From NCBI GenBank assembly GCA_016219285.1, contig JACRNJ010000032.1, positions 21,721-85,720 of the forward strand: a stretch of 64,000 nt of DNA, given 5' to 3'. Position 1 is the first letter of the stretch, and every line of letters begins with the position of its first letter. The notes under the pieces were generated by a model that had not been told where the DNA came from, ran no database searches, and saw nothing but the letters and a program-made list of their open reading frames with translations. The DNA comes from Deltaproteobacteria bacterium. GTDB taxonomy: Bacteria > Desulfobacterota > GWC2-55-46 > UBA9637. This document shows positions 3,396 through 63,209 of this stretch, one piece after another. Both the position numbers and the translations under genes were made by a program.

Positions 3396-4673
3396 ATGCA
3401 AAATGTAAAATGCAAAATTAAGGTAACTTTTTTTGTCTTTTTTATTTTTCTCTCTTGCCTATCCCATGCGCAGGAATTTACCTATGAATTCAGCGGCAAG
3501 ATTATTGAACAGCCCGCATATTATTTTTTAAAAGATGATTATCTCCTGAACCCCAACGGAGAGATACTGGATTTTTCTCTCTCAAAAAACAGGTTTTATG
3601 GCGATATAAATTTCAACCTTGATTACCAGAATTTTAAATTCATCTCAAAATTTAGACCAACAGTTTTATCGGATAAAAAGGATACAAATATAAAAACCAT
3701 TATTGATGACGGGTATCTGGACATTGGTTTTAAAGATAGGTTTTTCCTCTATCTTGGCAAAAGGAATATAAGGGATGGGGTTGGGCTCGGCTCAAATCCT
3801 ACAGATTTCTTAGGTGAAGGAAAAGAGGTTGATATGGCAAAGAGGGAGGAGGAGAGGCGGGTGGAGAGGGAGGGTAATTACCTGATCGGTATGGATACCT
3901 ATTTTAAAGATATTACATTAACTGCAATATTTGCCCCCCATATAAAGGAACTACAGGATGAAAAGGATAGGGTCATTTTAAAGGCAGGTTTTCTGATGGA
4001 GCCGCTCAATACAGACATCTCTTTTCACTATTTTAACAGCAGCATACCGGGGGCGGGCATTAACATATCCACCACCATTGGAGAGAGTCTTGTTCTGCAC
4101 ACAGAGTCAGCCCTTCGATGGGGAAGCGATAGAAAGATAGTCAGGCTCATCCAGGAGGGAAGCCCAAACCTATACGAAATATATCATCCCGATGACAATC
4201 AAACAATCTATCCACATATAGCAGCAGGAGGACATTATACATTTAAAGACGGAACGAATGTTATATTAGAATACCTATATAATGGCGATGGATACAATAG
4301 CGAAGAATGGAATACTCTCAAAGGATTTATAAAATACAGCTATGACGAATACAAAACCGGCTTTTTAAAAGAGCTTATGAAAGGGAACCTACTGCAGGCA
4401 AACGAGATAATGAGATTCAGGGAGTTGAGGAGAAACTATATCTTTGCAAGGATAAGCAACTCCGGCATCACAGAAAAGATAGACGGGGCATTGGTCTTCC
4501 TTTTAAATACAGATGATAAGAGCTTTCTCATTTATCCATCCGTGGATTATAAGATCAAGGGCAATACTACCGTAGGATTTTCTGCCATAATATTTGTCGG
4601 TGAAAATGACACGGAATTTGGTATGACCCACTGGGGGAGCGAAGTTAGTATGGTATATAGGTATTTCTTTTGA
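3396..4673 (+). CDS. putative outer membrane beta-barrel protein
   Basis: Signal peptide ending SHAQEF. The sequence alternates amphipathic beta-like segments rich in Y and G. The C-terminus RYFF ends in an aromatic residue, typical of OMP beta-barrels. It is the last gene of the exporter cluster. Confidence 0.45.
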   Translation: MQNVKCKIKVTFFVFFIFLSCLSHAQEFTYEFSGKIIEQPAYYFLKDDYLLNPNGEILDFSLSKNRFYGDINFNLDYQNFKFISKFRPTVLSDKKDTNIKTIIDDGYLDIGFKDRFFLYLGKRNIRDGVGLGSNPTDFLGEGKEVDMAKREEERRVEREGNYLIGMDTYFKDITLTAIFAPHIKELQDEKDRVILKAGFLMEPLNTDISFHYFNSSIPGAGINISTTIGESLVLHTESALRWGSDRKIVRLIQEGSPNLYEIYHPDDNQTIYPHIAAGGHYTFKDGTNVILEYLYNGDGYNSEEWNTLKGFIKYSYDEYKTGFLKELMKGNLLQANEIMRFRELRRNYIFARISNSGITEKIDGALVFLLNTDDKSFLIYPSVDYKIKGNTTVGFSAIIFVGENDTEFGMTHWGSEVSMVYRYFF

Positions 4674-14383: not shown

Positions 14384-14622
14384 GTCAGCGACATAAATTT
14401 GTAGTATGCCGATTTACCCCGTTAGAAGCTTTTCAATTGAAGATTTTGATGAAACTTTATTAACATTAACTCCCTTAAAATGAACTTCTAACGGGGTTTA
14501 TCGGCGATTTTAAACTTGTCCCCGCAGGCTTTAAGCTGGGATACGCCCATGGGGGCACCCAACAGAAAGTTGGGTCGGGCAAACTACATCTACATTATTT
14601 TTATCGTCAACTATAAAGCCTT
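14384..14622. mobile_element. composite/nested MITE-like element (family: gtagtNtgcc...caaactac) directly after the metG stop
   Basis: Shares both ends (agcgacataaatttgtagt...ggcacccaacagaaNgttgggtcgggcaaactac...atttttNtcgtc) with the 45190-45312 copy. It carries an extra internal inverted-repeat insert (ccccgttagaag...cttctaacgggg). Confidence 0.8.
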
Positions 14623-15174: not shown

Positions 15175-16599
15175 TTGTCAAACCAATATAAACTCATAGA
15201 CACCCATGCCCATCTTGACGACCCTAAATTTAAGAACGACCTGGATGACGTGATAAAAAGGGCAAAGGATGCAGGCGTTGGACATATAATCACTGTAGGC
15301 ACATGGCAAATTGAAAAAGGACTCAAGCATGTTGCAGAGCTTGCCGATGAATACGATTTTATCTATACTGCCCTTGGTGTTCATCCACATGATGCCAAAG
15401 ATGCAAATGATGACGCATTTAATGAAATCAAGGAACTGGCGCTCCATCCAAAGGTTATCGCCATTGGCGAAACAGGGCTTGATTATCATTACGAACACTC
15501 GCCGAGGGATGTTCAAAAAGCAGTATTTGCAAGGCAAATCCAAATAGCCCGTGAATTAAATCTGCCTCTTACCATTCACAGCAGGGAAGCACAGAACGAC
15601 ACTTTGGATATGCTTGCGCAGGAAGGTGTCAGAGACATCGGAGGTGTTTTGCATTGTTTTTCCGGCAGCTATGAAATGGCAAAGAAATGCCTTGATATGG
15701 GTCTCTATCTCTCCTTTACAGGTGTTGTCACATTTCCAAAGGCGGCAAATGTCCATGAGGTTGTAAAAAAGATTCCTATTGAAAGAATGCTCCTTGAAAC
15801 CGATTGCCCGTATCTGGCTCCTGAGCCGCACAGGGGCAAGAGGAATGAACCGGCATTTGTTGCAGAAACTGGAAAAAGGATTTCTGAGATAAAGGGATTA
15901 TCGTTTGACGATGTGGCAAGGATTACCACATTAAATGCAAAGGAACTATTCGGCATTGAGAAAGAAAATAAAGAAACCAGAATAGCGTATCCCATCAGGA
16001 ATTCACTTTACCTCAATATCACCAACCGATGCACCAACTACTGCACATTCTGCGCAAAGCATGCCCCCGCAGGCTTTAAGCGGGGGTCGAATGATTATAC
16101 TGTCAAGGGTCATTATTTGAGATTGAAGCAAGAGCCGGTCTTTCTTGATGTAATAATGGCTGTGGGCGACAGGCCTGCTGAAAAATATAACGAGATTGTA
16201 TTTTGCGGGTTTGGCGAGCCGCTTATAAGACTCGACCTTGTTAAAGAGGTTGGATTGTTTCTAAAAAAACAGGGTTGTAAGATACGGATAGATACAGACG
16301 GCCTTGCCAATCTTGTTCATGAAAGAAATATCCTGCCTGAACTTAAGTTTGTGGATACAATCTCCGTAAGTCTCAATGCCCCGGATTCAGCAACATATCA
16401 AAAACTCATCAAAACACCATTTGGCGACAAGGCATTTCCTGCCATAGTTTGGTTTTTGAAAGAGGCAAAAAAGCATATTTCAACGGTTGTTGCCACCGTA
16501 GTTGCTGTGCCAGAACTTGATATAGAGCCGTGCAGGAAATTGGCCGAAGATGAGCTCGGCGTTGGTTTCAGGGTGAGGGAGTATGATGAGGTGGGATAA
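15175..16599 (+). CDS. tatD: fusion protein: TatD-family metal-dependent hydrolase (N-terminal) plus TatD-associated radical SAM domain (C-terminal)
   Basis: TTG start. N-terminus DTHAHLDD ... GLDYHY ... ETDCPYL is a TatD fold. The C-terminal part of about 200 aa has CTNYCTFC (CxxxCxxC) and GFGEPL, a radical SAM core. It forms a single uninterrupted ORF of 474 aa downstream of metG, as Bacillus metS-yabD. Confidence 0.8.
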   Translation: MSNQYKLIDTHAHLDDPKFKNDLDDVIKRAKDAGVGHIITVGTWQIEKGLKHVAELADEYDFIYTALGVHPHDAKDANDDAFNEIKELALHPKVIAIGETGLDYHYEHSPRDVQKAVFARQIQIARELNLPLTIHSREAQNDTLDMLAQEGVRDIGGVLHCFSGSYEMAKKCLDMGLYLSFTGVVTFPKAANVHEVVKKIPIERMLLETDCPYLAPEPHRGKRNEPAFVAETGKRISEIKGLSFDDVARITTLNAKELFGIEKENKETRIAYPIRNSLYLNITNRCTNYCTFCAKHAPAGFKRGSNDYTVKGHYLRLKQEPVFLDVIMAVGDRPAEKYNEIVFCGFGEPLIRLDLVKEVGLFLKKQGCKIRIDTDGLANLVHERNILPELKFVDTISVSLNAPDSATYQKLIKTPFGDKAFPAIVWFLKEAKKHISTVVATVVAVPELDIEPCRKLAEDELGVGFRVREYDEVG

Positions 16600-20218: not shown

Positions 20219-20320
20219 ATTCGTGCTAAGAGCATAGCACAAACTTTATGAATTGCAAGGAGGGGCATTCTTTTCTTGAACAATCCATAGAAATTGATAT
20301 TATGATTGAGATTTTAGAAT

Positions 20321-20373
20321 GTAGTTTGCCCATTTATGGGCGTCTTAAAAATCGCCGATAAATCGGCAACTAC
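20321..20373. mobile_element. MITE-like palindromic element, canonical 53 bp copy
   Basis: gtagtt-tgcccatttatgggcg-tcttaaaaat-cgccgataaatcggca-actac. It has terminal inverted repeats and two internal perfect palindromes. Confidence 0.85.
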
Positions 20374-20392
20374 AACTTGAGGTTATAGAACC

Positions 20393-22721: not shown

Positions 22722-22790
22722 GTAGTGTGCCCATTTATGGGCGTATTTAAAAACGTAGATAAACCGATAAGCTGCAAATCATTGACTACA
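22722..22790. mobile_element. MITE-like element, degenerate copy
   Basis: gtagtgtgcccatttatgggcg...cgtagataaaccgataagc...gactacaatc. Confidence 0.6.
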
Positions 22791-22797
22791 ATCAAGA

Positions 22798-23763
22798 TTG
22801 CCGATGTTAAACAAACCAAAGAAAAATTCTAAAACGCCGATAAATCGGCAACTACAATCTTACGGTTTTTCTCCCTTAAAAAGATTCAGCCAAAACTTTC
22901 TCACCGATGAACGGATTGCCGGCAAGATTATTGATGCGTTTGAACTGAAAGAGGACGATACGGTAATAGAAATAGGCCCCGGTCTTGGCATGCTGACAGA
23001 GCGGCTGTTGGACACAGGGGCAAAGGTTCTGGCAATAGAGATAGATAAGGGTTTTGCAGATATTCTTGATAAAAGATTCGGCAGCAGGGATAATTTTGAA
23101 AAAATAATATGTCAAGATGCATTAAAAATTTCGTATAAAGAATTGTTTTGTAGGGTGGGCTGCGCCCACCAAAAACAGACGGATAAAAATGGCGGGCAAA
23201 GCCCGCCCTACAACGATAACAAGAAGCTTGCCCCTGCGGGCATAAAACAGTGGTTTAAGGTTATTTCCAATCTCCCTTACAACATCTCAACACCCATTAT
23301 TTTTAAACTTCTTGAGGAGCGCGAGATATTTTCAATGTTCCTGCTTATGCTGCAAAAAGAGGTGGCCGAACGGATTGTATCGCAGCCTGACACAAAAGAG
23401 TACGGTGTTTTGTCTATATTTGTTCAACTGTTTGCAGATGTAAATATAGAGTTTGATGTGCCGCCATCTTCATTTTATCCAAAACCAAATGTCTATTCTT
23501 CTGTTGTTAGGTTCACTATATTGCAGAAACCGAGAGTTGAAATATATGACATCAGCTTTTTTAAAAGAGTTGTTAAGGCGTCTTTTGGGCAGAGGAGGAA
23601 AACCCTGCTAAATGCCTTAAAGGTTTTAAAACTGACAACCCAGGAGATTAGAAATGCCTTAGAGCAATCTGGTATAGAGCCGCAGGCAAGGGGGGAGACC
23701 CTTAGCCTTAAAGAATTTGGAATATTAAGCAATAACTTGAAGAAAATAGCAGAACATATTTAA
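22798..23763 (+). CDS. rsmA: 16S rRNA (adenine1518/1519-N6)-dimethyltransferase KsgA/RsmA with in-frame REPIN-derived insert
   Basis: Conserved motifs FSQNFL, IEIGPGLGMLT and NLPYNIST are present. A half-MITE (22832-22860) encodes part of the N-terminus. The full REPIN-like doublet at 23151-23212 is translated in frame as CRVGCAHQKQTDKNGGQSPPYN. Confidence 0.85.
   Translation: MPMLNKPKKNSKTPINRQLQSYGFSPLKRFSQNFLTDERIAGKIIDAFELKEDDTVIEIGPGLGMLTERLLDTGAKVLAIEIDKGFADILDKRFGSRDNFEKIICQDALKISYKELFCRVGCAHQKQTDKNGGQSPPYNDNKKLAPAGIKQWFKVISNLPYNISTPIIFKLLEEREIFSMFLLMLQKEVAERIVSQPDTKEYGVLSIFVQLFADVNIEFDVPPSSFYPKPNVYSSVVRFTILQKPRVEIYDISFFKRVVKASFGQRRKTLLNALKVLKLTTQEIRNALEQSGIEPQARGETLSLKEFGILSNNLKKIAEHI
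23151..23212. repeat. REPIN-like palindromic doublet, copy 2 of 3, located inside the rsmA coding sequence
   Basis: tagggtgggctgcgcccaccaaaaacagacggataaaaatggcgggcaaagcccgccctaca. Confidence 0.85.
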
Positions 23764-24159: not shown

Positions 24160-24230
24160 AGCCGTGACCGTTTCCAGTGTCCGTATTTGTATTTTACGGT
24201 CACGGTAAACGGACACTGACAACGATATTT
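24160..24230. repeat. long inverted repeat (ccgtgaccgt / acggacacgg family) in a 5' leader
   Basis: gtgaccgtttccagtgtccgta...tacggtcacggtaaacggacact. A related copy lies at 60395-60480. Confidence 0.7.
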
Positions 24231-24233
24231 TCT

Positions 24234-24899
24234 ATGTCCATTTCCGTCATAATTCCAACCTTGAATGAAGAAGATAATCTTGAACATACCTTGAAATCAG
24301 TTGGCCAAGATGCGGAGATTATTATTGCAGACGCCGGAAGCAGTGATTCCACAATCAAAATAGCCAATGGGTTCACAGACAAGATTATCATGTCGGAAAA
24401 AGGAAGAGGCGCTCAGATGGATAACGGGGCAAGAATGGCGACAGGCGATATATTCCTTTTCCTACATGCAGACACAAGGCTTCCTGATGGCTGGATGGAA
24501 AAAGTTGCAGAAGCGCTAAAAGATGCTAAAGTTGTTGGAGGGGGGTTCAGGTTAAAAATAAACTCAGGAAAATTCTCTTTTAGTATTATAGAGGCAATAG
24601 TTAATCTTCGGTCAAGACGCCTTGGCTTTATCTACGGGGACCAGGCTATATTTGTCAGAAGGGATGTCTTTTTATCGGTTGGAGGTTTTATGGGGCTTCC
24701 ACTGATGGAGGATGTGGACTTAATGAGAAGGCTCAAGAAGGTTGGCAAGGTTATTTTAGTGGATGCGCAGGCCTCTACATCTCCGAGGCGCTGGGAGAAG
24801 AGAGGTGTTTTGAGGACAACTTTAAGAAACTGGATGTTTTTGAGCCTTTATTATCTTGGTGTTTCTCCGCAAAAATTATATAAATGTTATTATCAGTAG
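24234..24899 (+). CDS. family 2 glycosyltransferase
   Basis: N-terminal pattern SVIIPTLNEE...IIADAGSSD...GRGAQMDNG...GDIFLFLHADT is a GT-A fold with a DxD region. The ATG at 24234 is preferred over the ORF-track start at 24177, which lies in the hairpin. Confidence 0.7.
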   Translation: MSISVIIPTLNEEDNLEHTLKSVGQDAEIIIADAGSSDSTIKIANGFTDKIIMSEKGRGAQMDNGARMATGDIFLFLHADTRLPDGWMEKVAEALKDAKVVGGGFRLKINSGKFSFSIIEAIVNLRSRRLGFIYGDQAIFVRRDVFLSVGGFMGLPLMEDVDLMRRLKKVGKVILVDAQASTSPRRWEKRGVLRTTLRNWMFLSLYYLGVSPQKLYKCYYQ

Positions 24900-25014
24900 T
24901 CTGCCGATTTATCGGCGATTGTAACTCAAACCTTCAGATTTGAGTTTTTCAAGGCTAAAGCCTTGAGTTACAAAATGCGCCCATAAATGGGCAGGCTGCA
25001 AAAATATTAACTAC
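24896..25014. mobile_element. MITE-like element, inverted orientation with nested internal hairpin insert
   Basis: gtagtctgccgatttatcggcg...(gtaactcaaa...ttgagttac insert)...cgcccataaatgggcag...aactac. Confidence 0.8.
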
Positions 25015-25062
25015 GTCCAATAAGATTAATCCTGCGGCTATAAAGCATTTACAGGTAATTTT

Positions 25063-25274
25063 ATGTGTAAAACTAAGATTGTTGCCACATTAGGACATTC
25101 TACTACGACTTTAGAAGGAATAAAAAACTTACCAGGACATGGCTTCTGAAAGACGGAAAACCAATAAGGCTTATTAAATCAGGAAACCATATTACCATAA
25201 CCACACGAGATATTTATGGCAAAGAAGGGCTTATTGCCGCATCGTATAATCAAAAATCAAAAAAAGATTCTTGA
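25063..25274 (+). pseudogene. pyk: pyruvate kinase remnant (severely deleted, frameshifted)
   Basis: MCKTKIVATLGHSTTTLEGIKNL matches the pyruvate kinase N-terminus (TKIVxTLGP). After a stop and frameshift, DGKPIRLIKSGNHITITT...GLIAASYNQ resembles the B-domain. Only about 0.2 kb of a roughly 1.4 kb gene remains. Confidence 0.5.
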
Positions 25275-25411
25275 AAAGGGGGGATGTGGTTGTTATAGTC
25301 TAGGGGGGCTTCACCGACAACGGGTGCAACAAATATGATGAAGGCGAGCAGGGTAGGGGAGTAAAAAGACTTTAAACTTCAAATTGAAATCCTAACAACA
25401 AGGAGGTTTTT

Positions 25412-26857
25412 ATGGAGCTTAAGAAAACGGTTTCGGATGTCTATGATTCCCTGAAAGGCGTTGTAAAGGTTGAAAAAGAAAAGGCAGATGTGCTGGATAT
25501 TAAAAGATTCAGGGATGCAGTGGATTGGCTTGTTTATAATGCAGTGTTTAATGACAGCAAAGAAATAAAGGCCAATTGCAGGTGGCTGATAAAATCTGCC
25601 GCATTATCTATGCAGACAGGCGCTGCATCAATCCAGAGGCTTTATGAGGCAATGGGGATGGGAGAGGTTTGCGGATTTACAGTTCCTGCCGTAAATGTAA
25701 GAGGCCTTGCCTATGATACTGCAAGGGCATTATTCCGTTCAGCAATTAAAAATAAGGCGGGAGCCTTTATCTTTGAGATAGCAAAAAGCGAGATGGGGTA
25801 TACAGACCAGAGCCCCTATGAATATGCAGCTGTGGTGCTTGCTGCTGCATTAAGAGAAGGTTACAAAGGCCCTGTATTTATTCAAGGAGACCATTTTCAG
25901 GTAAATCCTAAAAATTATGCGCAGGATAAGGAAAAAGAAATTGACGGCTTAAAAGACTTGATAACAAAGGCGGTTAATGCCGGTTTTTACAATATAGATA
26001 TTGATTCGTCAACAGTTGTGGATTTAAGCAAGCCGAATGTTGTGGATGAGCAGCGGCCTAATTTTGAGGTTACGGCGCAGCTTACTGAATTTATACGGGA
26101 TATTGAGCCTGATGAAACGCCGATATCAATAGGCGGAGAGATAGGCGAGGTAGGAGGCAAGAATTCAACCGAAGAGGATCTAATGGTATTTATGAACAAC
26201 TATCTTGCAACCCTCGCCGGCATGGGCAACAATATGAAAGGTATCAGCAAAATGAGCATCCAGACCGGCACAAGCCACGGCGGCGTTGTTTTGCCTGACG
26301 GCACAATCGCAAAGGTTAAGGTTGATTTTGACACCATTGAAAAACTTTCCAATCTGGCGCGCAAGGCTTACGGCCTTGCTGGCGTTGTCCAGCACGGCGC
26401 ATCAACCCTGCCTGATGATGCCTTTGACCTGTTTCAGAAAAAAGGGGCTGCGGAGGTTCATCTGGCCACAGGTTTTCAGAACATGATTTATGACAGCAGA
26501 TATCTTCCGGATAGCCTGAAACAGGAGATTTATAAATATCTGCGCGAGAATATGGCAAAAGAGAAAAAGCAAGGGGAAACAGATGAGCAGTTTATATACA
26601 AGACAAGGAAAAAGGGATTAGGGCCATTTAAAGAAAAATTATGGAATCTGCCGGTATCTGTCAGGCAAGGAATTGGAAAAGAGTTGGAGGAGAGGTTTGA
26701 CCTTCTATTTAAGAAATTAAAGGTAAACGATACATACAATCTGGTTCTCAAATGGGCAGTACCTGTAAGGTCAGGCTTAAAGCTTGAGAAGGAGATAGAG
26801 GGATCTGCCTCTGAAGCTAAAAAGGTAAAACAAGAAAAGGGAGACAGAGGAGAGTAG
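25412..26857 (+). CDS. class II fructose/ketose-bisphosphate aldolase family protein (long form)
   Basis: Aligns by eye to class II FBA motifs: IQGDHF (DHxx metal ligand), ISIGGEIGEVGG (ELG..GGEED), TSHGGV (NVHG) and VQHGAST (HGGSG). Length 481 aa. Confidence 0.55.
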   Translation: MELKKTVSDVYDSLKGVVKVEKEKADVLDIKRFRDAVDWLVYNAVFNDSKEIKANCRWLIKSAALSMQTGAASIQRLYEAMGMGEVCGFTVPAVNVRGLAYDTARALFRSAIKNKAGAFIFEIAKSEMGYTDQSPYEYAAVVLAAALREGYKGPVFIQGDHFQVNPKNYAQDKEKEIDGLKDLITKAVNAGFYNIDIDSSTVVDLSKPNVVDEQRPNFEVTAQLTEFIRDIEPDETPISIGGEIGEVGGKNSTEEDLMVFMNNYLATLAGMGNNMKGISKMSIQTGTSHGGVVLPDGTIAKVKVDFDTIEKLSNLARKAYGLAGVVQHGASTLPDDAFDLFQKKGAAEVHLATGFQNMIYDSRYLPDSLKQEIYKYLRENMAKEKKQGETDEQFIYKTRKKGLGPFKEKLWNLPVSVRQGIGKELEERFDLLFKKLKVNDTYNLVLKWAVPVRSGLKLEKEIEGSASEAKKVKQEKGDRGE

Positions 26858-26930
26858 TCTAATATTTAATCTTACTTTAATGTATCTTTTGGTAGTGTGG
26901 TATTGAAAAACAGCAAGGTGGAGATGGGAG

Positions 26931-27404
26931 ATGAAGAAAGGCAGAGTATTTTATATCGCACTATTTATTACGATTTTTGCGGCAGGCTGGTTCCTTTTTG
27001 GAAATGTTTTTTCTGGCGCAGAGATGGCTGATGATAAGAAGTTGTCAAAGGGTATATCCTACCACAGAGAAAAAGAAAAAATGGAGAACATAATGCAGCA
27101 GAATTTTGCACATGTCCATACAATGCTAAATGGGCTCATATATAGCAAATCCGATATTATCCTGGATGCAGCCCAGTTGTTAAGGAAACATGCATATGAA
27201 CTAAAACAATTAAAGCCCGATAAGAATCTGGGAAATATTAAAATATATCAATTTCTTGCAGAAGACTTGATTGCGCATACCGATAACATCATATTAGCTG
27301 CTAAAAATAATAATCTTGAACTTATTTCCACAGAGCTTGGAAAGATGGTAAACGAATGTGTTACATGTCATATAAAATTCAGAGATAAGCCTATTCAGAA
27401 ATAA
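26931..27404 (+). CDS. class II cytochrome c (cytochrome c-prime-like)
   Basis: Signal/anchor segment, a helical body, and a single CxxCH (CVTCH) six residues from the C-terminus, which is the cytochrome c-prime architecture. Confidence 0.55.
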   Translation: MKKGRVFYIALFITIFAAGWFLFGNVFSGAEMADDKKLSKGISYHREKEKMENIMQQNFAHVHTMLNGLIYSKSDIILDAAQLLRKHAYELKQLKPDKNLGNIKIYQFLAEDLIAHTDNIILAAKNNNLELISTELGKMVNECVTCHIKFRDKPIQK

Positions 27405-28142: not shown

Positions 28143-29489
28143 TTATTTGGCGCTGACCGGTATTGTAAACCTAAAAGTGGTTCCTTTGTCCAGTTCACTT
28201 TCTATTGAAATAGTGCCGCCGTGCCTCTCAATTATATGCCTTGTCATGGCAAGGCCAAGACCTGTGCCTTTTGTTGTTTTTATAACATTACCAGCCCTGA
28301 AGAATTCTTCAAAGATGTGCGGCATGTCATTTGACGGTATGCCAATCCCTGTATCTTTTATCTCCGCAATAATGTAGCCATTTTTTCGTGAAACCTTTAT
28401 CCAGACATTTCCTCCATGTTGAGTATATTTGAACGCATTGGCAATGAGGTTTAGGAAGGCATAGGTTATTAATTCCCTGTCAGCCTTTATATCTGGCAAC
28501 TGCGCATCAATTTCTATGTTTAACTGTATATCCTTTTCTCCCATCTTCGACGATGCAATCTCCACAGCGGTATCTATAGCCTCTTTTATATTAAATATCT
28601 TCAGATTAAGATTTTTCTCCGCCCTTATTCTGGAGAGATCAAGAAGGTCTTTTGCATAATGATGGAGAAATTCTGTTTTTTTCTGAATTCTCTGCAAAAC
28701 CTCTTTTACCTTTTCATCAAGGGTACCGGCAAACCCGCCTATCACTACCTCCAAAAGGCTCTGAATGGAGGCAAGGGGAGACTTTAAATCATGGCTGACC
28801 ATCTTTACATATTCATCTTTAAGTCTATCCTTTTCCAATAATTTCAGGTGAGCCTCCTCTAACTCTTTTTCCCTGTTTTTAAGCTTTTCTGCCAGGGATG
28901 CAGTGAAAAAGGTGGCGATGAAAATGGTGGATGTCAATACGAATGATATAGCTGCCGTATATATCTTATTTTTGTAAAGGTCTATGCCCAAAAATCCATT
29001 TACAGAGTGGTGAGGTAGAGTGTTTAGATATTCAAGCGTAAAGAGGCCGACTGTCAGAATAGAAATAATGCATGCCTGGATATAGGCCTCTTTTTTTGAG
29101 AGGAGCATGCTCGTAAGTATAGTATGGAAGATGAAATAAAATATAAATGGGTTTTCAGCGCCGCCTGTAAAGTGTATGAGAACAGTCAGGCTCAAAATGT
29201 CCAGCATACTCTGAAGAATCGCAAATCTCCGTATGGTCTTATGCAGATTGCCGGCAGATCTCTTGTTTATATAAAACTTAAAAATGGCATTATAAAGAGC
29301 TATGAATATGGCGATGAGATATACAGGAAGGTCAGGAAAGGAGACATTGAATAGATAGATAGACGTAAACGTTGCGGCAATAATAAATATCACAGCAGCC
29401 CAGCGTATATTTATGAGCCACTTTAGTCTTTCTACGAGTTCTTCTTGCCACAGATCTGTCTTATGCACATTTGTTTGCAGTTGCCGCAT
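28143..29489 (-). CDS. membrane sensor histidine kinase
   Basis: N-terminal 5-6 transmembrane segments, HisKA H-box MVSHDLKSPL, and an HATPase (DTGIGIP...GTGLGLAM). Confidence 0.85.
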   Translation of the reverse strand: MRQLQTNVHKTDLWQEELVERLKWLINIRWAAVIFIIAATFTSIYLFNVSFPDLPVYLIAIFIALYNAIFKFYINKRSAGNLHKTIRRFAILQSMLDILSLTVLIHFTGGAENPFIFYFIFHTILTSMLLSKKEAYIQACIISILTVGLFTLEYLNTLPHHSVNGFLGIDLYKNKIYTAAISFVLTSTIFIATFFTASLAEKLKNREKELEEAHLKLLEKDRLKDEYVKMVSHDLKSPLASIQSLLEVVIGGFAGTLDEKVKEVLQRIQKKTEFLHHYAKDLLDLSRIRAEKNLNLKIFNIKEAIDTAVEIASSKMGEKDIQLNIEIDAQLPDIKADRELITYAFLNLIANAFKYTQHGGNVWIKVSRKNGYIIAEIKDTGIGIPSNDMPHIFEEFFRAGNVIKTTKGTGLGLAMTRHIIERHGGTISIESELDKGTTFRFTIPVSAK

Positions 29490-29530
29490 TTATTGGGCTT
29501 ATTAAAGGCGCCGATAAATCGGCACACTAC
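29476..29530. mobile_element. MITE-like element, degenerate copy
   Basis: gcagttgccgcatttattgggc...ggcgccgataaatcggcacactac. Confidence 0.55.
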
Positions 29531-29913
29531 TTTTTCCTAAGAAGTTTTTCAACTTTTACAAGCAGGTCTTTTGGTTTTATGGGTTTTTCAACCAATTCAT
29601 CCACTGGCAGATAATCTTCGTCGGTTTCTTTGCTGAATTTAAAACCAGTCTCTTTGCCTATAGATGTAAGCATAAGTATTGGTATCTTGGAAAGCTCCGC
29701 ATGGTTTTTTAATTTGTAGCTTGTTTGAAAGCCCTGATCCTTGGTTTTCATTACAACATCAAGGATTATGAGGTCTGGCTTCTCCGCCTCCGCTTTTTTA
29801 TAGCCAGCGTCGCCTTCACTGGCAGATATGACTTTATAACCCTTACTTTCAAGCACTATCTTGATTGCTTCAACTATATCAGCGTCATCGTCAATAATTA
29901 GGATTTTGGACAT
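29527..29913 (-). CDS. single-domain response regulator (CheY-like receiver)
   Basis: ILIIDDD...DLIILDVVM...LMLTS with Asp and Lys at canonical positions. Length 128 aa with no output domain. Confidence 0.85.
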   Translation of the reverse strand: MSKILIIDDDADIVEAIKIVLESKGYKVISASEGDAGYKKAEAEKPDLIILDVVMKTKDQGFQTSYKLKNHAELSKIPILMLTSIGKETGFKFSKETDEDYLPVDELVEKPIKPKDLLVKVEKLLRKK

Positions 29914-37428: not shown

Positions 37429-37483
37429 GTAGTTTGCCCATTTATGGGCGTTTTTTAAAAGCGCCGATAAATCGGCAGACTAC
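37429..37483. mobile_element. MITE-like element, canonical copy
   Basis: gtagtttgcccatttatgggcgttttttaaaagcgccgataaatcggcagactac. Confidence 0.85.
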
Positions 37484-45189: not shown

Positions 45190-45312
45190 GGCAGCGACAT
45201 AAATTTGTAGTCTGCCGATTTATCGGCGGTTTTAAAATACGCCCATGGGGCACCCAACAGAAGGTTGGGTCGGGCAAACTACAGCTACTTATTTTTGTCG
45301 TCCACTATAGAA
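45190..45312. mobile_element. MITE-like element (long form) directly after the rnc stop
   Basis: agcgacataaatttgtagtctgccgatttatcggcgg...cgcccatggggcacccaacagaaggttgggtcgggcaaactacagctac...atttttgtcgtc. It is the un-nested counterpart of 14384-14622. Confidence 0.8.
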
Positions 45313-62207: not shown

Positions 62208-63209
62208 TTAAATCTTCCACCCTCTAAGTTTGTTTGCTTCTCTGATGAAATTAATATTCGGTCTGTCGTTCACTGCTGGCGGAACATTTATGATTGGTCG
62301 TAGGTCTTTCATAAACCTGTCCATTCCACCATCAAAGCCAATTTTTTTGAGCTTTTTCATTTCGTTTGTATTCACGATGATTTGATATTGCTCATTGAAA
62401 GTTACAAGTCCTTTGTCGTATGCACGATGATATAAAGCCGAAAGTGATATGCCGTTCGCTGTGTCATCAGTTGAATCATTGTAGTTAACAGGAACGATGT
62501 GAGCAGCGTCAACAAGTTTCAACTGCATTCCGCTAAATGCACATTTGTTGCTGTATGCTGTCAAAACTCTTGTCTTGAAACTTGTATCGCGAAGTTTTTT
62601 GCTTAACTGAATAACCGCTGTCTGCCTTTGCTTGCTTACTTGCTGAATAAGTTCTGCGTTTAATTCAAGAGGCTGGTCTGAAACTTCCGCTAAAACCTTG
62701 AAGTCTTTTGTGGAAACTCCGAAGCTGTGTAGTTGTTCTAAACTCTGAACATAGTTCACAAAAAAATCAGGACGAAATGCAGTTGCAATTTCTCCATTGC
62801 CTTTGTCGCAAGGGGAGAAACCATTGATGAGGGCTTTACGCAGAAATTCCTCTCTGATTTGCATTGATGGCGAAAAGCCAAGTTTTCCAGTGTGTTTCGT
62901 ATAATCAAAACCCGCGAAAACGCCAACTTCACTCCACCAGCCAAGTATTAATGTTTTCTCACCTTCTTTTTGTTCAAAATGGTCAGCGCCCGTAATTTGA
63001 ATACGATACTCGTCTTTTGGTCTTGCTGTACCACCCCCGTGAGTTAAATTCCAAATATAAATTCGGAGTAAATAACTTTCTTCATTGTTGTAAATTTTGA
63101 TGACAAAAGGATGGTTTGAAATGTCGCCAACATATAGCACATTCCAACCGCTATCGTTTATTGATTGAACGATAATATCAAGTAAGTCATACTTTCTGTG
63201 CTTTGTCAT
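62208..63209 (-). CDS. putative type II restriction endonuclease with C-terminal HNH nuclease motif
   Basis: C-terminal HNH core (CAFSGMQLKLVDAAHIVPV...NGISLSALYHRAYDKGL). Overlaps the upstream methyltransferase gene by 23 nt on the same strand. The segment is compositionally distinct. Confidence 0.5.
   Translation of the reverse strand: MTKHRKYDLLDIIVQSINDSGWNVLYVGDISNHPFVIKIYNNEESYLLRIYIWNLTHGGGTARPKDEYRIQITGADHFEQKEGEKTLILGWWSEVGVFAGFDYTKHTGKLGFSPSMQIREEFLRKALINGFSPCDKGNGEIATAFRPDFFVNYVQSLEQLHSFGVSTKDFKVLAEVSDQPLELNAELIQQVSKQRQTAVIQLSKKLRDTSFKTRVLTAYSNKCAFSGMQLKLVDAAHIVPVNYNDSTDDTANGISLSALYHRAYDKGLVTFNEQYQIIVNTNEMKKLKKIGFDGGMDRFMKDLRPIINVPPAVNDRPNINFIREANKLRGWKI

Follow-up and report, generated by a model that had tools for sequence, protein, structure and literature searches.

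Pyruvate kinase catalyzes an irreversible step that serves glycolysis only, whereas the aldolase step is reversible. The pyruvate kinase family is characterized by a PF00224 barrel and a PF02887 C-terminal domain (TIGR01064), and intact genes of this family (pyk) are present in related metagenomic loci, e.g., L004, L005, L006, L013, and L021. Positions 25063 to 25364 of the 64-kb stretch of DNA analyzed here (the window) align with these genes in the same order, on the same strand, and in the same slot. In contrast to intact pyruvate kinase, this segment lacks 79% of the gene, including the entire catalytic A-domain barrel, and contains frameshifts and stops. It is almost certainly a nonfunctional pseudogene of pyk: a relic of the pyruvate kinase family rather than a member of it, and an ordinary, routine pseudogene. 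A literature search for precedents of pyk pseudogenes revealed nothing relevant. Taken jointly, a pyk pseudogene that decayed stepwise, a retained aldolase promoter, and a pathway read in the direction of sugar synthesis form the best overall explanation of the locus, with a probability of about 0.85.

The pyruvate kinase remnant and the adjoining repeat

Intact 468-amino-acid pyruvate kinases from the syntenic loci of the related metagenome-assembled genomes (MAGs) L004, L005, and L006 were used as tblastn queries against the whole window. Significant matches were confined to four collinear segments on the plus strand at 25063 to 25361, corresponding to amino acids 1 to 23 (25063 to 25131), 73 to 124 (25134 to 25295; E = 4.5e-10), 434 to 450 (25256 to 25306), and 450 to 468 (25305 to 25361) of pyruvate kinase. 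Every other match in the 64-kb window had an E value above 0.5. The DNA identity of the surviving pieces to the intact genes was 72 to 82% (blastn). The first piece (A) gave E = 6e-9 (L004, 82% over 55 nucleotides [nt]; L006, 72% over 96 nt), the second (B) gave E = 5.6e-22 against L006 with 78% identity over 116 nt, and the third (C) gave E = 1e-18 to 3e-19. The preliminary description of this DNA had proposed a decayed pyruvate kinase upstream of an aldolase gene; the translated search, the blastn matches, and the intact pyk in the same slot of relatives bear this out.

Analysis of the concatenated remnant peptide with the NCBIfam pyruvate kinase models revealed matches at both ends (model positions 5 to 30 and 416 to 471; E = 7e-6 to 7e-5), with scores far under the cutoffs, as expected for a fragment. 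Pfam recognized no PF00224 barrel in this peptide, and PK_C remained below threshold (14.3 bits versus a cutoff of 28); close orthologues from related MAGs were therefore needed for the identification. The remnant shares 56 to 64% amino acid identity with the intact orthologues, which are 65 to 75% identical among themselves over the same segments, and 8 of the 49 residues that are invariant in the intact orthologues are altered in it. Significant collinear similarity and the orthologous position both point to descent from the pyruvate kinase family. The uninterrupted open reading frame (ORF) of approximately 470 codons with the PF00224 barrel and catalytic residues, which defines a functional pyruvate kinase, is missing. 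The longest ORFs in the remnant have 28 and 40 codons, and no pyruvate kinase protein can be made from it.

All features of the locus lie on the plus strand. A family 2 glycosyltransferase gene at 24177 to 24899 (PF00535, E = 4e-22; probable true start near 24240) ends with its last codon and stop (CAG TAG, 24894 to 24899) running into an inserted repeat at 24896 to 25014. The repeat is followed by a spacer at 25015 to 25062, which is homologous to the L013 spacer and leads to the pyk start. The last approximately 25 nt of this spacer are similar to the glycosyltransferase 3' end found ahead of pyk in loci of the ancestral type (pairwise alignments in both cases).

The remnant itself comprises three collinear pieces of the 468-codon gene, i.e., codons 1 to 25, 73 to 110, and 434 to 468 with the original stop, and the deletion junctions were mapped to the codon level. 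Piece A (25063 to 25136) contains the start codon and codons 1 to 25 (MCKTKIVATLG...), with the KTKIVATLG motif at 25069 to 25095. One base is missing between 25121 and 25122, resulting in a -1 frameshift, and the start frame terminates at a TGA at 25147 to 25149. The junction between pieces A and B lies in an AGG microhomology (25134 to 25136; ATMAGG), where approximately 48 codons (26 to 72) were removed in frame. Piece B (25134 to 25249) was delimited by tblastn, blastn, and codon-level junction comparison; it covers codons 73 to 110 of the B-domain and has a 3-nt insertion near 25171. The second junction (25250 to 25255) consists of A-rich filler with a duplicated TCAAAAA; here, codons 111 to 433 (approximately 970 nt) are missing, and with them the whole catalytic barrel. 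Piece C (25256 to 25364) covers codons 434 to 468 and the original TAA (25362 to 25364) and corresponds to positions 416 to 471 of the NCBIfam models. It is interrupted by an in-frame TAG (25301 to 25303) and a +1 insertion near 25300. Three-frame translation of 24990 to 25415 reads MCKTKIVATLGHSTTTLEGIKNL in one frame from 25063 and WLLKDGKPIRLIKSGNHITITTRDIYGKEGLIAASYN in a second frame; further frames read IKKRFLKRGDVVVIV and GASPTTGATNMMKASRVGE, each ending in a stop. Downstream, the ribosome binding site AAGGAGG (25400 to 25406), read from the sequence and kept in relatives, precedes the gene of a 481-amino-acid long-form protein of the class II aldolase superfamily (25412 to 26857; named class II fructose-bisphosphate aldolase [FBA] by NCBI).

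Several details given in the preliminary description hold at this resolution: the TKIVATLG motif is present (25072 to 25095), a B-domain stretch survives as piece B, and the stop and the frameshift are those of piece A. The start at 25063 is also correct, but the end lies at 25364 and not at 25274, the C-terminal 35 codons and the TAA having been missed. Approximately 302 of 1,407 nt of pyk survive, so that about a fifth of the gene is left and the loss of approximately 85% stated before has to be lowered to approximately 79%.

The repeat at 24896 to 25014 is a REP/MITE-like palindromic element with the outer arms TGCCGATTTATCGGCG (24902 to 24917) and CGCCCATAAATGGGCA (24978 to 24993). A nested palindrome of approximately 60 nt inside it (about 24918 to 24977) is single copy in the window. 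The predicted fold of the repeat has an energy of -50.3 kcal/mol (z = -8.2 versus shuffled controls), and the basic form of the family reads GTAGTnTGCCGATTTATCGGCG...CGCCCATAAATGGGCAAACTAC. The window contains at least seven copies of the family, including arm copies at 20327 to 20368, 22728 to 22850, 29509 to 29524, 37435 to 37477, and 45213 to 45228 and a split copy at 14401 to 14510; copies are also present in L011 and L013. Multiple copies with conserved inverted termini are thus a property of this element. Inspection of seven copies by eye revealed no consistent target-site duplication. At the copy studied here, approximately 25 to 30 nt resembling the glycosyltransferase 3' end are found on both sides, which is not a typical target-site duplication.

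The pyk slot in related genomes and a candidate aldolase promoter

When species-representative genomes were scanned with the neighbouring aldolase, nine loci were obtained. In L004, L005, and L006, a pyruvate kinase gene of 468 codons lies between the glycosyltransferase and the aldolase, and an intact pyk occupies the same slot in at least 10 related metagenomic loci (L004 to L006, L013 to L019, L021, and L042 to L044). Comparison of the junction with those of L002 and L004 to L006 showed that, in relatives of the ancestral type, the glycosyltransferase stop and the start of pyk overlap (TATTATGCGTAA). Compared with that of L019, to which it is 98% identical, the pyk gene of L020 lacks one base at each of two positions, reflecting either another inactivation or a sequencing error. 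Smaller pyk remnants were found in the same slot of L002, L003, L012, and L041, where pieces A and B are wholly absent. L002, L003, and L012 have a common junction, ATGCGT(AAA/CCA)A joined to TAAAAAAGACCCTTGAAAA, which connects pyk nt 1 to 10 to approximately nt 1302. In L041 the start codon is gone as well, and TATTAT is joined to AAAAAAAACTCTTGAAAAA. Toxin-antitoxin cassettes are present in the interval in L003 (MNT/HepT) and L012 (BrnT/BrnA) and 3' of the intact pyk in L044 (MNT/HepT). The L011 sequence begins with a copy of the repeat, only 40 nt away from the aldolase start on the upstream side; no pyk 3' end is visible in the 90 nt available, which counts against the aldolase promoter proposed below.

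The aldolases of the four smaller-remnant loci are only 84 to 85% identical to that of the window, so the loss of pyk is not confined to one strain: either it is old and common to these genomes, or it has recurred. The loss of pyk, at a site where relatives turned out to keep the gene beside the aldolase gene, was correctly recognized in the preliminary description, but the word "recent" used there was too strong: two large deletions, three small indels, extra stops, and 8 changed residues among 49 invariant ones require that it be qualified. The locus also appears to be mosaic, since the repeat and spacer are common to the window and the L013 group and piece B is closest to L021.

A consensus scan of 24700 to 25500 revealed a putative aldolase promoter inside piece C at 25259 to 25299. 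It consists of an A-tract (25259 to 25267), a -35 hexamer TTGAAA (25271 to 25276), a 17-nt spacer, and the extended -10 sequence TGTTATAGT (25291 to 25299), with a predicted transcription start near 25306. With 10 of 12 matches (TTGAAA-17-TATAGT and an upstream TG), it is the best of four sites in this region, where 1.7 are expected by chance, and its -35 and -10 hexamers are of the sigma-70 type with a spacing within 16 to 18 nt. The candidate lies approximately 113 nt upstream of the aldolase ATG. A proximal subsite of the UP element was reportedly described by Estrem and colleagues in 1999, and the A-tract, at about -47 to -39, presumably resembles this subsite. A search of 24700 to 25500 against Rfam gave no match to a known RNA family.

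The five pyk-less alleles (the window allele, L002, L003, L012, and L041) all retain the A-tract, the -35 hexamer, the 17-nt spacing, and TGTTATAGT. They are joined differently on the 5' side: TCAAAAA is followed by TCAAAAAAAGA in the window, ATGCGTnnnA by TAAAAAAGA in L002, L003, and L012, and TATTAT by AAAAAAAA in L041. In all five, the deletions end within approximately 3 nt of each other, at the start of the A-tract. The hexamer is TTGAAA in every pyk-less allele versus TTGAAT in every intact gene, a change toward the consensus; TTGAAT is fixed in the intact genes because AAT encodes the invariant Asn440. Within five intact pyk lineages, codons 438 to 447 ranked lowest in synonymous diversity among 260 sliding windows (0.18; mean, 0.43; next lowest, 0.19) in a scan computed after the conservation had been noticed by eye, and the variation in these codons falls in the promoter spacer only. 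In the pseudogene alleles, 1 of 14 core positions versus 3 to 6 of 15 spacer positions was changed, a difference that is not significant (Fisher P = 0.08 to 0.6). Judged from these sequence comparisons, the 3' end of pyk somewhat more probably than not carries a candidate promoter of the aldolase gene, which would explain the retention of piece C.

The decay most likely proceeded as follows. The ancestral order was glycosyltransferase-pyk-aldolase, and the first two genes overlapped by stop and start codon, as is still the case in related genomes. One deletion removed codons 26 to 72 at the AGG microhomology, and a second removed codons 111 to 433 at the A-rich junction and thereby the entire barrel with its catalytic residues. 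Afterwards, the gene accumulated small indels, premature stops, and substitutions. The last approximately 105 nt of pyk would have been kept as the carrier of the candidate promoter of the downstream gene. Deletions extending further would silence the aldolase, and this is the reason proposed for the position of the breakpoints near the A-tract in every pyk-less allele.

Alternatively, the pyk 3' end might be without function, the common 3' breakpoint might stem from one ancestral deletion or from a microhomology hotspot in the A-run, and the decay might simply be unfinished. The coincidence of the 3' breakpoints agrees with this explanation, as do the -35 T-to-A change and the G at the third position of codon 444 that the window allele shares with the L002-type alleles, the position of both large junctions in A-rich or AGG microhomology, and the nonsignificant difference between core and spacer in the pseudogene alleles. 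The window likewise groups with the other pyk-less loci in neighbor-joining trees built from the aldolase and from cutA together with the glycosyltransferase, but the bootstrap values are weak (18 to 50%). Furthermore, the derived insertion of repeat and spacer is common to the window and the pyk-intact L013 group but absent from the L002 group, which speaks against a simple common descent of the entire locus. A functionless 3' end also leaves two observations unexplained: the synonymous-site minimum of the intact genes falls at exactly this spot, and the erosion in L002, L003, L012, and L041 hit both sides of the 29-nt element but never the element. We consider a functionless 3' end plausible but less probable and prefer the retention of a candidate promoter in piece C.

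Three further explanations were rejected. The insertion of the repeat might have caused or triggered the loss of pyk, e.g., by uncoupling its translation from that of the glycosyltransferase or by promoting deletions, as the preliminary description had suggested for what it called a MITE copy. The element, which is a real multicopy palindromic repeat adjoining the remnant, does occupy the very point at which the stop of the glycosyltransferase gene and the start of pyk once overlapped, so any translational coupling must have been broken. However, it touches neither deletion junction, and a short form of it with the same spacer is present at the same nucleotide in L013, L014, and L015 together with a full-length pyk that aligns to L004 pyruvate kinase residues 1 to 463/464. 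In addition, the more strongly deleted L002, L003, L012, and L041 have no repeat at this site. A causal role of the repeat is thus very unlikely. It is still less credible that the remnant encodes a small protein (a 28-codon ORF from the pyk start or a 40-codon ORF at 25216 to 25338) or serves as an aldolase leader RNA. The pyk start codon is retained and the remnant is probably part of the aldolase 5' region, but the pyk-less alleles do not conserve the reading frames, pieces A and B are missing entirely from four of them, and the Rfam search found no match. Hardly any weight can be given to an assembly or binning artefact, i.e., a collapsed or chimeric contig that hides an intact pyk. The source is a MAG, and the contig L001 from Logan, an independent assembly, jumps abruptly from 18% divergence to identity at 24668, which indicates that strain mixtures exist in these data. 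L001 is nevertheless 100% identical to the window over 24669 to 27025 and reproduces the remnant base for base; the remnant is therefore not an assembly artefact. Moreover, besides the two junctions, the pieces show substitutions, indels, and stops of their own, and analogous remnants occur in other assemblies from other samples. The stepwise decay of pyk down to a candidate promoter thus remains the preferred reading.

The neighbouring aldolase and a possible direction of the pathway

The 481-amino-acid protein passed the Pfam cutoff for PF01116 (55.4 bits versus 25.5; residues 88 to 379) but none of the curated models of FBA and tagatose-bisphosphate (TBP) aldolase (TIGR01859, TIGR00167, NF009497, and others). 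The best NCBIfam score was obtained with TIGR00167 (42.5 bits versus a cutoff of 215.6), and TIGR01859 gave 31.4 versus 343. Comparison with the metal-binding His triad and catalytic Asp of the Escherichia coli enzyme (D109/H110, H226, and H264) revealed the corresponding residues D160-H161, H289, and H328, which are invariant in 41 family members. In the alignments, the His motifs of Giardia FBA and the KbaY-like SqiA fall on GTSHGG and QHGAS, and the GGDH of the GatZ-like structure 2fiq falls on GDH. The Asn of the KxNxDT motif is replaced in this family by an invariant His (H350). The AF2 model has a pLDDT of 89, the Lys/Glu-rich tail (469 to 481) excepted. Foldseek assigned it a probability of 1.0 to many FBAs and aligned it with class II aldolases at 11 to 18% identity, which places it in the class II aldolase TIM-barrel fold. 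A profile search of the family against the PDB sequences gave nothing at E ≤ 0.001 and weak partial alignments at E ≤ 10, and no characterized member turned up in the PDB or in the literature search.

The subfamily has at least 8,000 matches. The best 120 listed are mostly 446 to 482 amino acids long, and their sources are Deltaproteobacteria/Thermodesulfobacteriota, Nitrospinae, and Nitrospirae; members from anammox bacteria and Roizmanbacteria were added by the genome scan. NCBI already names members of the family class II FBA. The protein is typical of this large uncharacterized long subfamily (447 to 481 amino acids) of the class II aldolase superfamily. The atypical length noted in the preliminary description is therefore real with respect to E. 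coli FbaA but normal within its own subfamily. Distant members stand alone among housekeeping genes and not in sugar-catabolic operons; in this clade, the aldolase gene adjoins pyk. Judged from this genomic context, fructose-bisphosphate aldolase is the most likely activity of the protein, an assignment that we consider probable.

An intact pyk, pyruvate phosphate dikinase (PPDK), or PEP synthase gene, any of which might serve as a functional replacement, was found nowhere in the 64-kb window (tblastn with pyruvate kinase; Pfam on the 20 largest other ORFs). The loss of the kinase together with the retention of the aldolase suggests a pathway that is gluconeogenic only. From pathway knowledge and the 64 kb of the genome that are visible, the organism might run the pathway only toward sugar synthesis, a reading whose chances appear evenly balanced. 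In a wider picture, pyk would have been lost once or repeatedly in a clade of uncultured groundwater Thermodesulfobacteriota, with selection trimming the dead gene to exactly the piece that bears the promoter of the neighbour. The aldolase family, spread over Nitrospinota, Nitrospirota, anammox bacteria, CPR bacteria, and Thermodesulfobacteriota and with a His for the substrate-binding Asn, would be nearer in architecture to GatZ and tagatose 4-epimerase enzymes than to classical aldolases and, as the main aldolase of gluconeogenesis in these lineages, might work by an altered mechanism or on an altered substrate. This picture is speculative and, in all its parts together, unlikely.

No pyruvate kinase should be credited at the ancestral locus to this MAG or to at least four relatives, and in metabolic modelling the glycolytic direction should not be assumed for pyk-less genomes. 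The alleles form a natural deletion series, from the intact gene through the three-piece remnant and a 110-nt remnant to the loss of the start codon. Such a series is indicative of a promoter concealed within coding sequence and would illustrate how the regulatory needs of a neighbour can fix the point at which gene decay stops. In several autotrophic phyla of environmental importance, the annotated FBA belongs to this aldolase family.

Comparison with known systems

Like REP/BIME palindromes and MITEs, the repeat is short (approximately 55 nt in its basic form), noncoding, intergenic, strongly palindromic, and present in many copies per genome; it is common to related genomes, and its copies are hotspots for nested insertions. 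Unlike these elements, it has no evident target-site duplication, a cognate RAYT or IS transposase was not seen in the window, and each of its arms folds into a small hairpin of its own (GCCGA-TTTA-TCGGC and GCCCA-TAAA-TGGGC). None of the named families that could be tested matches it.

The candidate promoter resembles internal operon promoters in its sigma-70-like -35 and -10 hexamers, 17-nt spacer, extended -10 TG, and A-tract, all located inside the last 40 codons of the upstream gene. In comparison with internal operon promoters, the candidate site is defined solely by retention in the alleles and reduced synonymous variation. With respect to the erosion of pseudogenes by deletion bias, the locus would be a case in which the promoter-bearing piece outlives the rest of pyk.

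The 481-amino-acid protein agrees with the short FBA and TBP aldolases (E. coli FbaA and the Thermus, Giardia, AgaY/KbaY, SqiA, and YdjI enzymes) in scoring above the PF01116 gathering threshold, and its invariant GDH, GTSHGG, and QHGAS motifs line up with the metal- and phosphate-binding motifs of Giardia FBA, KbaY-like SqiA, and GatZ-like 2fiq. In contrast to this agreement, its identity to every solved structure is only 12 to 19%, and it has extra helical parts, comprising approximately 85 N-terminal and approximately 100 C-terminal amino acids. These parts align better with the long GatZ/T4E/UxaE forms (342 residues) than with the short FBAs (approximately 260).

Toxin-antitoxin cassettes and possible pyk lesions in relatives

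Inspection of the interval between the pyruvate kinase gene (pyk) and the aldolase gene in related metagenomic loci revealed toxin-antitoxin cassettes in L003 and L012, which are pyk-less, and in L044, in which pyk is intact. The cassette is of the MNT/HepT type in L003 (positions 3416 to 4149) and L044 (2235 to 2976) and of the BrnT/BrnA type in L012 (1153 to 1687). In L003, the old pyk start codon is joined in frame to the MNT open reading frame (ORF). Comparison of pyk in the related contig L020 with that of the 98%-identical, pyk-intact contig L019 revealed two single-base deletions, at about positions 859 and 1126 of L020, one of them within the invariant DGTDAVML motif. These deletions represent either a further independent inactivation or sequencing error.

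Palindromic repeats and the alignment with L001

In addition to the copy adjacent to pyk, the palindromic repeat occurs in the window at 14401 to 14510, 20320 to 20375, 22722 to 22856, 29470 to 29531, 37430 to 37483, and 45207 to 45290, and members of the same family are located in the relatives L011 (1 to 53) and L013 (2237 to 2290). Nested insertions are present in several copies. At 14401 to 14510, another palindrome interrupts the hairpin of the left arm and is flanked on both sides by a duplicated TTTA; at 45207 to 45290, the right arm is interrupted.

Alignment of the independently assembled Logan contig of the same locus (L001) with the window shows 18% divergence at 24463 to 24668, within the glycosyltransferase gene, and 100% identity from 24669 on. 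This switch points to a recombination boundary or to a contig that is chimeric between strains.

Other genes of the window and the long aldolase

A cytochrome c'-like gene (26931 to 27404; PF01322, E = 3e-5) is positioned between the aldolase and cytochrome b561 genes in this genome only; in L002, L003, L011, and L012, the b561 gene directly follows the aldolase gene. A single 474-amino-acid ORF (15175 to 16599) encodes both a complete TatD-type hydrolase domain (residues 8 to 260) and a radical SAM domain (residues 280 to 458). The ORF at 62208 to 63209 (minus strand) contains an MTaX1 (methylase-associated X1) and an HNH endonuclease domain. A Pfam search at E <= 1e-5 with the 425-amino-acid ORF at 3396 to 4673 (plus strand) revealed no match.

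In the aldolase (25412 to 26857), the Asn of the class II aldolase KxNxDT motif is replaced by His (H350), which is invariant across the long aldolase family. The N-terminal half of this family aligns best with GatZ-like proteins, and the C-terminal half aligns best with catalytic aldolases.
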